Position numbers and translations under genes: made by a program. From assembly GCF_055900595.2 (NCBI RefSeq), contig NZ_CM148325.1: a DNA stretch of 64,000 bases; one strand, 5' to 3'. The notes under the pieces were generated by a model that saw only the letters and a list, made by a program, of their open reading frames with translations, searched no databases and had not been told where the DNA came from. This document shows positions 55,608 through 60,309 of the stretch, piece after piece. Each line of letters opens with the position of its first letter. Positions within the stretch are counted from its first letter, which is position 1.

Positions 55608-56624
55608 TTAATCATCCGGCGTCAGTTCGCCGCGCAGGTTTTGGCTCATGGCCTTGCGAATGGTTTCAGTATCCAGTTCCTGGCTAAGCAGGTAATGCAG
55701 TTTGGTTAGCGTGGCTTCTACAGTCATATCTGCACCGCCAATAACGCCGGCATGGGCGAGGGCGTTACCGGTGGCATAACCCCCCATGTTCACTTTACCG
55801 GACATACATTGTGTCAGGTTGACTACCACAATTCCGCGATCGCTGGCTTCTTGTAATTCTTGCAGGAAGGCTTTGTTTTGTGGCGCATTACCCACGCCAT
55901 ATGAGCGCAGAATCAATGCTTTCACCGGTTGGCGCAGAAAATTGCGCACGACGTCAGCAGAAATCCCTGGATAAATCGTCACTACGCCAATTGGTTGTGG
56001 GGTGATTGGATGAACGATCAATTCCCCTTCACCGTGCGGGGCGGGTGGCGTATTCAAACGACGAATATGGATACCTGCTTCCAGTAACGGAGGAAGGTTT
56101 GGAGAGGCAAACGCATCAAAACCATCGGCATGGGCTTTGGTGGTACGGTTGCCACGATAAAGTCGATTATTAAAAAAGAGAGTTACTTCGTTGATAGGAT
56201 AATTCGCCGCAACGTACAACGCATTCAGCAGATTAATTTGTCCGTCAGAGCGTAACTCAGCCAGCGGGATTTGTGACCCTGTCACAATGACCGGTTTACC
56301 GAGATTCTCGAGCATGAACGACAGCGCAGAGGCGGTATACGCCATCGTGTCGGTGCCGTGCAGAATGACAAAACCATCATAGTCGTCATAATGCGCTTTA
56401 ATATCTTCAGCAATATGCTGCCAGTCTTCTGGCGTCATATCTGAAGAGTCCATCAGCGGCGTATATTCATGAATGGTGAAATCTGGCATCTCCGGGCGAT
56501 GGAATTCCGGCATCAGCGCCAGTTGGCGTTGTAGATGACCTGACACCGGAATATAACCCTGCTCGGAACGCTGCATCCCGATGGTCCCGCCCGTGTAGGC
56601 GACGTAAATTGATTTCTTTTGCAT
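55608..56624 (-). CDS. ansA: cytoplasmic L-asparaginase 1 (AnsA)
   Basis: 338-aa ORF MQKKSIYVAYTGGTIGMQRSEQGYIPVSGH...; start 10 nt upstream of pncA. Confidence 0.95.
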   Translation of the reverse strand: MQKKSIYVAYTGGTIGMQRSEQGYIPVSGHLQRQLALMPEFHRPEMPDFTIHEYTPLMDSSDMTPEDWQHIAEDIKAHYDDYDGFVILHGTDTMAYTASALSFMLENLGKPVIVTGSQIPLAELRSDGQINLLNALYVAANYPINEVTLFFNNRLYRGNRTTKAHADGFDAFASPNLPPLLEAGIHIRRLNTPPAPHGEGELIVHPITPQPIGVVTIYPGISADVVRNFLRQPVKALILRSYGVGNAPQNKAFLQELQEASDRGIVVVNLTQCMSGKVNMGGYATGNALAHAGVIGGADMTVEATLTKLHYLLSQELDTETIRKAMSQNLRGELTPDD

Positions 56625-56755: not shown

Positions 56756-57478
56756 TTAATCCTGCAACGCATAGGTTACGGTGGTGACTACGCGTACCGT
56801 TTTATTAATCGCCGTAGGATCATCTTCATCACTGCCACTGGCGAAGATCTGGAACACGCCTTGTGAGGCATCGCTAATTGACCCCACCTGGCTACCTGAG
56901 TCCGTTGCAAATTGTAATGCTGCGTTGCGTGCATCTTTGGTGGCGGCGGCAATCATCTCAGCGCGCAGTGCGCCAATACCATTAAAGCGATAGGCGACTT
57001 TGCTCTCAGCGATAGCGCCCTCCGTAGCGACTTGCAGTTCGTTTAATTTCGCGACGACTTTTTCGACAGCAGCAACATTATGGGTTTTTATCGTCACTGA
57101 CCCGTCTGCGTTATAGCGTGGCATTGTGGGATCATCTTTCAGATAAAAGGAATCTGTTCGCTTGCTTGTCCATTGGCCCAGGGTTATCTCTTTCTCGTTA
57201 ATCCCCTGAGCATTGAGTTCGGCAACAATTTTTTTCTGCGCGTCTTCCAGTTTCGGGAACAGTTCGCCGGGAATATTACCCTTAAAGTTAATCGCAATTG
57301 TTAATTCTGCCGTATCTGCGCGAACTTCTTTTTCAGAAAGCCCACGCACATTTACATAACGGTTATTGGTTTTCAAATGTTTAACACCATCGCCAACAAA
57401 ATAACCACAGGCGCTAATCCCCAGTCCGAGGACGATAGCGGCAATTAAAGAGGGGGCCTTATTCACTGATGACTCCAT
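56756..57478 (-). CDS. SIMPL/DUF541-like putative lipoprotein
   Basis: C-terminal ~240 codons of track ORF 56756..57925; ATG at 57478 (MESSVNK...) or, better supported, GTG at 57466 with GGAG 6 nt upstream giving (M)NKAPSLIAAIVLGLGISAC lipobox signal; family call from recalled SIMPL architecture. Confidence 0.55.
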   Translation of the reverse strand: MESSVNKAPSLIAAIVLGLGISACGYFVGDGVKHLKTNNRYVNVRGLSEKEVRADTAELTIAINFKGNIPGELFPKLEDAQKKIVAELNAQGINEKEITLGQWTSKRTDSFYLKDDPTMPRYNADGSVTIKTHNVAAVEKVVAKLNELQVATEGAIAESKVAYRFNGIGALRAEMIAAATKDARNAALQFATDSGSQVGSISDASQGVFQIFASGSDEDDPTAINKTVRVVTTVTYALQD

Positions 57479-57717
57479 ATCAGATGCTAAATGAGCAAGG
57501 GAATGTAGTGGAGAGAGGGAGTGAAAGACAGTCCGATTCAGGAGTGTGGCCGACAGCATATCGGCCACATTTTTGTGCACAGAAAACCCCCAGCTAGGCT
57601 GGGGGTTCCGGAAAGCTTTCAGCTTTGAGCCAGTTATTAAAACCCCTTTTGATTTGTTAAAACACCTTGCGGTCTGGCAACTGCAAGTGTCAAACAAGAA
57701 ATCAAAAGGGGGTCCCA

Positions 57718-58176
57718 ATGGGGGACGAAAAGAGCTTAGCGCACACCCGCTGGAACTGTAAATATCACATAGTTTTTGCGCCGAAATACCGAAGACTGGC
57801 GTTTTACGGAGAGAAGCGTAGGGCGATAGGCAGTATTTTGAGAAAGCTGTGTGAGTGGAAAAGCGTACGGATTCTGGAAGCAGAGTGCTGCGCAGATCAT
57901 ATCCATATGCTTGTGGAAATCCCACCCAAAATGAGCGTATCCGGCTTTATGGGATATCTGAAAGGGAAAAGCAGTCTGATGCTTTACGAGCAGTTTGGGG
58001 ATTTGAAATTCAAATACAGAAACAGGGAGTTCTGGTGCCGAGGGTACTATGTCGATACGGTGGGTAAGAACACGGCGAAGATACAGGACTACATAAAGCA
58101 CCAGCTTGAAGAGGATAAAATGGGGGAGCAGTTATCGATTCCATATCCGGGCAGCCCGTTTACGGGCCGTAAGTAA
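57718..58176 (+). CDS. tnpA: IS200 transposase TnpA (HUH/Y1 family)
   Basis: Track ORF 57667..58176 trimmed to ATG at 57718: MGDEKSLAHTRWNCKYHIVFAPKYRR...HIHMLVEIPPK...; HUH motif (HIHML) and catalytic-Tyr region recognisable. Confidence 0.92.
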   Translation: MGDEKSLAHTRWNCKYHIVFAPKYRRLAFYGEKRRAIGSILRKLCEWKSVRILEAECCADHIHMLVEIPPKMSVSGFMGYLKGKSSLMLYEQFGDLKFKYRNREFWCRGYYVDTVGKNTAKIQDYIKHQLEEDKMGEQLSIPYPGSPFTGRK

Positions 58177-58252
58177 CGAAGTTGAATGCAAATGTCAGAT
58201 CGTATGCGCCTGTTAGGGCGCGGCTGGTAACAGAGCCTTACAGGCGCATTTG

Positions 58253-58276
58253 AAAAACCTCCGGCTATGCCGGAGG
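58253..58276 (-). terminator. intrinsic terminator 16 nt downstream of sppA stop
   Basis: minus-strand stem cctccgg / ccggagg with 5-nt loop followed by UUUUU; may lie inside the IS200 right end. Confidence 0.6.
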
Positions 58277-58292
58277 ATATTTATTGCAGGAT

Positions 58293-60149
58293 TTAACGCA
58301 CGTTGGCGCAGGTCAGGCAAAACGCATAACGGTTTTGTGGGTCGTTAAACGCTGCCAGCTTGTCGCTTTCACTTTTAACGGTAGAGGCTACCGAGGCCAG
58401 CGGTGCAGGTAACATGGCCTGGAACGCATCTGGCAACATTGCCCGGACAGAACCAGACATATTGTCCATCACTTTGTCGAAGAAGGTCGGTTCATCAACG
58501 TAGTATTCCAGATGCCACTGTTTCACTTTTGCCAGCTCTGCCGCTTTGGCAACCGCATCATCGAAATCCCCGAGACTATCGACCAGCCCGTTAGCTTTTG
58601 CATCCTGACCGGTCCAGACGTGGCCCTGGGCGATTTTATCAATCTGCTCCGGCGTCGAATGACGCGCATCAGCAACCAGCGTGATAAAGCGTTTATAGCC
58701 ATTCTCAATGCTTAACTGCATCATCTGCTGCGCTTCCGGCGGCAGTGCCTTGGTGATAGAAACATCCGCTAGCGGTGAAGTTGAGACGCCATCGGTATGA
58801 ACACCAATCGAATCCAAACTATTTTCTACGGTAGTGATCACGCCGAAGATACCGATAGAACCGGTCAGGGTGCTGGGGTTAGCCACAATGTAATTAGCTG
58901 GCGTGGAAATCCAGTAACCACCAGATGCCGCCATGCCGCCCATCGATACAACCACCGGCTTACCCGCTGCCCTGGCTGCTGCCAGTTCAGCGCGAATCAC
59001 TTCAGAGGCGGTAACGCTGCCGCCAGGGCTATTAACACGCAGAACAATCGCTTTCACTTTCGGGTCAAGGCGAGCGTCGCGGATTTGTGCCGCAGTGGTA
59101 TCACCGCCAACATTCCCCTGAGTTTCCTCGCCATCCATAATTGCGCCATTAGCGAAGACGACACCGATACTGTCACCGGTATCTGCCGGCGTTTTCAATG
59201 CGTAATCGTAATAACTGATGGCGCGATAATTTTTATCAGTCTTACTCCAGCCGAACTCTTTGGTCAGAGCTTTTTCGATTTCGGCACTTGATGCCAGTGC
59301 ATCGACCAGCTTGTTTTCCAGCGCATATTTCGCGGTATCGCCACCGGTTTTGGTTAAACCCTTAAGCAACCCTTGCGCACCAGGGAATACCTGCTGAGCA
59401 GGGATCTGCCGGTTAGCGGCAACAGTATTCAGATAGTTTTGCCACAGCTCACCGATCCAGCGGCTGTCAGCTTCGCGGGCTGCCGGTGACATATCATCAC
59501 GAATAAACGGTTCAACGGCAGATTTATACGTACCCACGCGGAACACATGGGTGGAAACTTTCAGCTTATCCAGCAACGATTTGTAGTACAGGCCGTTGGT
59601 AGCAAAACCGTGCAGATCCACCACGCCTTGTGGAGATAGCCAAATTTTGTTGGCGAAACTGGCGAGATAATATTGCCCCTGGCTGTAGTTCTCGCCTATG
59701 GCATAAACTGGTTTCCCGCTGTCACGAAACTCTTTCAGGGCTTTGCCGATGTACTGCATAGACGGCTGGTCGCCGCCTGCGAAGTTTTTCAGATCCATCA
59801 CGATACCGGTGATATTGCGGTCGTCCTTCGCCTGGCGAATGGTGTTGACGATATCAAACAGTGAGTTTTCCTGCAGACGATCGGAACTGGCACCAAGCAG
59901 CTGGCGGCTTAGCTTACTAAACCGCTGAGAACTGTCGGGTTTATCGACGATTACACCAGATATGTCCAGCAGCAGCGCGCCACGACTGGCCGTTTCTTTC
60001 GAATCACCACCACTGACCTGCATCCAAATCCCCACACCAACCAGTACGAGAAAAATAAAGAACAGGTTAAGTACCATTTCACGGACGAAATTCAGCAGAC
60101 GCCACGTCCATTTAAAAAATCCGGCAATAAATCGCCAAAGGGTTCGCAT
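58293..60149 (-). CDS. sppA: signal peptide peptidase SppA (protease IV)
   Basis: Track ORF 58293..60161 trimmed to ATG at 60149 ([38 protein letters not shown]...); 618 aa. Confidence 0.95.
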
Positions 60150-60309
60150 GTATTCTCCCAACTAAAGGTCACACCTGTCACAGGCGCAATAGATGTGGTT
60201 ATCGTAATGACCCAACCGGCACTTGTCAGCAGGAATTGCGGACTGTGCTGTAACAAAATCCACTCTCGTGTTAATTTTGTGAATAAATATCATGACAGGA
60301 GTTAATCAA

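Follow-up and report, generated by a model that had tools for sequence, protein, structure and literature searches.

Within the 64-kb stretch of DNA analysed here (64,000 nucleotides; hereafter the window), a 152-codon open reading frame lies on the plus strand beside the 3' end of sppA, and the locus raises the question of whether this frame belongs to a complete insertion sequence, where such an element begins and ends, and what its presence means for the host. A first-pass annotation had read it as an IS200-type element at 57545-58280, between ansA and sppA. From sequence comparisons with empty sites, other copies and known transposases we conclude, with a probability of about 95%, that the window carries an intact, autonomous IS200-group insertion sequence of the IS200/IS605 family, placed directly after a host hairpin followed by TTTTT. 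The complete element is 711 bp long and occupies 57575..58285 on the plus strand.

Boundaries and identity of the element

To define the inserted DNA, the occupied site was compared with empty sites in ST131 and O157:H7 genomes, which were found by the search with both flanks that the first-pass annotation had proposed. In these empty sites the sequence ...CGGCCACATTTTT (or ...TGTGGCCGACAGCATATCGGCCACATTTTT) runs directly into GCAGGATTTAACG, so that the inserted DNA is 57575..58285, with no target-site duplication in the comparison of occupied and empty sites. The alignment by itself leaves the placement of the ends ambiguous by -2/+1 nt; this ambiguity is removed by the junctions of two other E. 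coli copies, at oppF and araE, and of head-to-tail tandems in Yersinia pestis, where ...GGAGGATATTTATT is joined to GTGCC.... The element thus starts with GTGCAC (GTGCACAGAA, GTGCACAG...) and finishes with ...ATATTTATT, and no terminal inverted repeats were found between the ends GTGCACAG... and ...ATATTTATT. The first-pass annotation was therefore right about the kind of element and wrong about both of its ends: a start at 57545 includes 30 host nucleotides (57545..57574) that are also present in the empty site, and an end at 58280 falls 5 nt short of the real right end. Its description of the surroundings also needs adjustment, as the adjacent gene on the left is a SIMPL-domain gene (56756..57466, minus strand), which lies between ansA (55608..56624, minus strand) and sppA (58293..60161, minus strand). 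The right neighbour is sppA itself, with its stop codon (58293..58295) 7 nt from the right tip of the element. Since both ansA and sppA are on the minus strand, the frame is antisense to them, as had been noted. No second IS200 copy was found within the 64-kb window.

The only gene of the 711-bp element is tnpA (57718..58176, plus strand; ATG at 57718, stop ending at 58176), which encodes a 152-aa Y1/HUH transposase; other reading frames are out-of-frame or antisense overlaps of tnpA, and RefSeq annotates tnpA only. The protein matches Pfam Y1_Tnp (PF01797) with E=9e-37 over model positions 2-121 of 121 and the NCBIfam equivalog NF033573, 'IS200/IS605 family transposase', with 144 bits at a cut-off of 55, and its best matches among solved structures are the TnpA proteins of the family (2ec2, 2f4f, IS608 2a6m/2vjv and ISDra2 2xm3; E = 2e-23 to 3e-13). 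The HUH histidines and the catalytic tyrosine, on whose presence the first-pass annotation had made its assignment depend, are all in place: H61-I-H63 and Y125 align with H64/H66 and the catalytic Y127 of IS608 TnpA, and it is Y125 that was changed to obtain the catalytically dead form of Salmonella IS200 TnpA (PMC4513863). The Pfam, NCBIfam and PDB sequence matches settle the identity of the protein, and with it the earlier reading of the 152-codon frame as an IS200 transposase. RefSeq annotates the identical TnpA sequence as WP_000502112.1 at this locus and for copies elsewhere.

A transposase of this kind, flanked by hairpins on both sides of its gene, could also be a domesticated REP-associated tyrosine transposase (RAYT) or belong to a two-gene IS605/IS1341-type element, and there is indeed a weak NCBIfam match to REP_Tyr_transpos. 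That match, however, reaches 30 bits against a cut-off of 80 for NF047646, while the IS200 equivalog scores 144 against 55, and a RAYT is further opposed by the multiple copies of the element, its defined ends and the existence of an empty site. The 711 bp contain no tnpB or other supported open reading frame, as a two-gene element would require. We consider both of these origins extremely improbable and regard them as ruled out by the scores and by the organization of the element. The features found are instead those of the IS200 group, namely a Y1/HUH TnpA, a lone tnpA, a length of about 0.7 kb, the lack of inverted repeats and of a duplication, hairpins at both ends, the target, and nucleotide similarity.

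Among annotated plasmid copies, nucleotide identity is 96.5% to IS200C, the nearest annotated relative, 91.4% to Salmonella IS200F and 87% to Yersinia IS1541 (IS1541A/B). The IS200 of Salmonella enterica (e.g. IS200F) and the IS200C of E. coli and E. albertii also encode a single 152-aa TnpA with the catalytic Y125. They likewise have no inverted repeats and make no target duplication, carry the palindrome and the Shine-Dalgarno-sequestering stem-loop at matching element positions, and also include the art200/STnc490 region. The Salmonella element measures 707 bp (PMC4513863) as against 711 bp here, and IS200F is about 9% divergent over the 93% of the element that aligns, with no functional difference evident. 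IS1541 of Y. pestis and Y. pseudotuberculosis has the same architecture, an identical 23-nt left-end palindrome, an identical right tip (CCTCCGGCTATGCCGGAGGATATTTATT) and the same placement after a hairpin and T-run; it differs in its left tip (GTGCCCAGAA, compared with GTGCACAGAA here) and, in Y. pestis, in its much higher copy number and head-to-tail tandems. The copy in the window is an ordinary, already known member of a thoroughly described insertion sequence, and nothing in it departs from known IS200 biology.

Structures at the two ends and the probable control of tnpA

The left end contains a perfect palindrome with a 10-bp stem and a TAG loop (57585..57607, plus strand; AACCCCCAGC-TAG-GCTGGGGGTT), for which 0 occurrences are expected by chance; the palindrome proposed earlier at 57586..57604 is real and lies inside it. 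In IS200 the left-end palindrome at nts 12-34 is a terminator that blocks incoming transcription (PMC4513863), and the palindrome would also be the left-end hairpin bound by TnpA. Folding of the RNA from 57575..57735 gave this hairpin, a small hairpin at 57612..57626 and a long stem-loop at 57643..57711 (plus strand), and none of 200 shuffled sequences was as stable. The long stem-loop, found in both the minimum free energy (MFE) and centroid folds (z = -4.2), pairs the G-run of the tnpA Shine-Dalgarno sequence (AAGGGGGT, 57706..57713), much as the first-pass annotation had proposed for 57641..57711. The published IS200 Shine-Dalgarno sequence is AAGGGGGU, and the stem-loop that pairs it is placed at nts 69-138 (PMC4513863). 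Counted from the left tip, the palindrome and the stem-loop of the present copy fall at element positions 11-33 and 69-137, compared with the published 12-34 and 69-138.

The palindrome and the structured tnpA 5'UTR together are spanned by a match to Rfam RF01405 (57585..57708, plus strand), which at 146.4 bits exceeds the gathering threshold of 56 (E=2.5e-31) and covers model positions 1-124 of 124. This family is STnc490, an Hfq-binding RNA. Its match is to the tnpA-sense strand, and Ellis et al. 2015 place STnc490/art200 on the strand antisense to the tnpA 5'UTR; given this disagreement, the Rfam model may represent the 5'tnpA strand and not art200.

An art200 antisense RNA of about 90 nt is predicted at 57638..57727 on the minus strand by analogy with Salmonella IS200, in which art200 starts at nts 153/154 and is 90 nt long (PMC4513863). 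Consistent with this, the minus-strand fold of 57727..57630 shows a complementary stem-loop followed by UUUUAAU (z = -5.05). A putative promoter for this RNA (57734..57762, minus strand) combines the -35 sequence TTTACA (57762..57757), a 17-nt spacer and a poor -10, CTAAGC (57739..57734); the published art200 promoter is described as having a good -35 and an 'almost unrecognizable' -10 (PMC4513863). As a consensus scan called no promoter in 57400..58400, we place this one by analogy with the published work only. Expression of IS200 is held down by three layers, the left-end terminator, sequestration of the Shine-Dalgarno sequence, and art200 together with Hfq (PMC4513863), and sequences for all three are present in the element.

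At the right end, the DNA fold of 58177..58285 (z = -5.0) contains an interior inverted repeat (58204..58249, plus strand; ATGCGCCTGT ... ACAGGCGCAT). A terminal hairpin follows (58258..58276, plus strand; CCTCCGGC-TAT-GCCGGAGG), with the right tip ATATTTATT 9 nt away. The stem of this hairpin is homologous to that of the left-end core (CCCCCAGC-TAG-GCTGGGGG), with two stem differences, both compensated, and GAAAA directly precedes both hairpins.

Target choice and a possible route of transposition

As noted above, the element follows a host hairpin, which together with its T-run is the insertion target. This hairpin (57545..57574, plus strand; TGTGGCCGA / TCGGCCACA) has in the DNA fold a 9-bp stem (57545..57553 / 57561..57569), a 7-nt loop and then TTTTT (57570..57574), and the empty sites carry it without change; it was not among the terminators called by the consensus scan. 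To see where related elements sit, one genome per species was scanned for the exact 23-nt left-end palindrome, which gave 120 DNA stretches and 116 distinct, non-tandem left flanks, a sample that the exact bait restricts to elements retaining the palindrome and in which Y. pestis IS1541 predominates. A left flank was counted as terminator-like if its MFE did not exceed -8 kcal/mol, if at least 4 of its last 6 nt were T, and if its stem ended no more than 9 nt from the junction; 555 random positions from the same loci served as controls. Such a hairpin with its T-run was present in 111 of the 116 flanks of the IS200 group, compared with 9 of the 555 controls. The T-run was always on the tnpA-sense strand, and the five left-flank bases next to the junction had the consensus TTNTT over all 116, with TTTTT at the sppA locus.

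The hosts in this survey include Yersinia, Vibrio, Brenneria, Dickeya, Edwardsiella and Mailhella, as well as metagenome-assembled genomes (MAGs) assigned to Bacillota, Peptococcaceae and Saccharibacteria. In the MAGs the exact 23-nt palindrome is kept in diverged IS200-like elements of several phyla (mis-binning is possible), which differ in their left tips and in the sequence downstream; for many of these copies a contig end is only about 90 to 110 nt away, as is typical of repeats that break assemblies. At five Y. pestis loci, IS1541 was seen in head-to-tail tandems in which the right end ...CCGGAGGATATTTATT is joined to the left end GTGCCCAGAA, two of the tandem junctions having one extra T.

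The mechanism that we propose for this element is taken by analogy from IS608 of Helicobacter pylori and ISDra2 of Deinococcus, whose TnpA proteins are homologous to this one (E about 3e-19) with the HUH and Tyr residues aligned. TnpA would bind the top strand at both of the homologous subterminal hairpins, cleave it 3' of the flanking TTTTT and of the terminal TTATT, and excise a single-stranded circle. The circle would then be pasted in on the 3' side of a TTNTT where the DNA is single-stranded at a replication fork. The GAAAA 5' of each hairpin is probably a guide, pairing with the T-rich sites of cleavage and insertion, and GAAAA and TTNTT are common to all sampled elements. This 'peel and paste' by way of a single-stranded circle would be expected to apply here as well. 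The plus strand of the window has positive GC skew throughout, and the G-rich, tnpA-sense top strand is therefore the lagging-strand template; a bias towards this template is reported for the IS200/IS605 family (PMC5027513), and the top strand of IS608 and ISDra2 is likewise on it. Those elements share the subterminal hairpins and the insertion 3' of a short specific sequence that the left end abuts, but they also carry tnpB, which is absent here, and they insert at TTAC and TTGAT, next to which no hairpin is reported, whereas the present element follows TTNTT directly after a hairpin.

These flanks could mean that elements of the IS200 group use intrinsic-terminator-like DNA, a hairpin plus TTNTT that copies their own right end, as a structural target, and that selection is not the sole reason why they lie there. 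The T-run would then be read by the conserved GAAAA that precedes each subterminal hairpin. This reading is supported by the 111 of 116 flanks and by the head-to-tail tandems formed at right ends, and the Y. pestis tandems fit a right end that acts as a mimic, hairpin plus TTATT, of the target; we put it forward tentatively, as an explanation that is on balance unlikely. Older work on IS1541 reportedly also noted hairpins upstream of insertions. A 2026 preprint reports terminators enriched upstream of IS200/IS605 elements and interprets them as a matter of expression regulation (10.1101/2025.07.22.666184); in literature searches on whether IS200 targets terminators, this preprint alone came up. 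Given the preprint and the older work on IS1541, the observation on the flanks is probably not new, and the mechanistic reading alone might be.

Recent movement in E. coli and likely effects on the host locus

The IS200 nucleotide match on which the first-pass annotation had also made its assignment depend was found in the named plasmid copies and in 3,061 of 5,426 complete E. coli genomes (2,365 were without a match), at 1 to 35 places per matching genome with a median of 2; 814 of the places were on plasmids. The insertion at the sppA locus is far rarer: the full query with both flanks found it in 8 of the 5,426 genomes, or 8 of the 943 having the site, and its carriers hold about 15 to 17 IS200 copies per genome. 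By these genome comparisons the insertion is restricted to a small E. coli lineage. The copy at oppF has no mismatches over 711 bp to the one at sppA and the copy at araE has one. From the rarity of the insertion and these near-identical copies we conclude that the element has been mobile in E. coli in recent times, even though its rate in the laboratory is low. RefSeq assigns WP_000502112.1 to the oppF copy and for two of the four araE copies with intact ygeA. Five further E. coli matches all proved to be one araE-ygeA locus, so that three independent E. coli sites were seen.

Both the araE and the oppF copies of the 711-bp element lie directly 3' of the terminators of these genes and are co-directional with the upstream gene, and the araE insertion is common to many strains from varied hosts and countries. 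A BLAST match in ST2747 that starts 27 nt left of the element had suggested that the host hairpin travels with it. This idea was rejected, as the hairpin in that match is a different one, the oppF terminator, and its similarity to the host hairpin is due to chance.

IS200 transposes very rarely (PMC4513863) and has been described as 'not appearing to be mobile' (PMC12594629), and the copy might therefore be a fixed, effectively immobile relic that supplies regulatory RNAs, a 5'tnpA-derived sRNA and art200. Such a role would agree with the trans-acting sRNA formed by the IS200 5'UTR in Salmonella (PMC5435999, PMC12594629) and with the full conservation of the sRNA region in this element. A relic, however, would not be expected to keep an intact tnpA reading frame and both ends, to be inserted in only 8 of the 943 genomes with the site, to occur at 1 to 35 places per genome, or to have copies at unrelated loci that differ by 0 to 1 nt, and an RNA role and mobility are not mutually exclusive. 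We therefore consider the relic quite improbable and prefer an intact, autonomous insertion sequence.

The SIMPL gene adjoins sppA in 943 of 5,425 complete E. coli genomes (query with joined flanks), including ST131 and O157:H7, and a K-12-like genome examined has neither this gene nor the element at the locus. This genome and the 2,365 that gave no IS200 match agree with the remark in the first-pass annotation that K-12 carries no IS200 copy. The match of the SIMPL gene to the NCBIfam model of an oxidative stress defense protein is weak (19.5 bits, cut-off 249). The hairpin downstream of sppA has a stem nearly the same as in K-12 (GTGGCCGA), where the T-run after the hairpin is on the sppA strand and makes it a proper sppA terminator. 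In genomes that have the SIMPL gene the T-run lies on the other strand, leaving sppA without a canonical U-tract there. The right-end hairpin of the element scans as terminator-like on both strands and is followed on the minus strand by TTTTTCAAAT, and it is likely that this hairpin with its TTTTT now stops sppA transcripts. If so, the SIMPL gene would be uncoupled from sppA, provided that the two are co-transcribed.

For the organism, the insertion may separate the SIMPL-domain gene from sppA transcription. It also identifies the window as coming from a non-K-12 E. coli lineage and, being present in 8 of the 5,426 complete genomes, serves as a lineage-specific marker; beyond annotation it is of little importance. 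For the family, the placement after a hairpin and T-run is an illustration of how this group of insertion sequences chooses its sites, and is not special to this copy.
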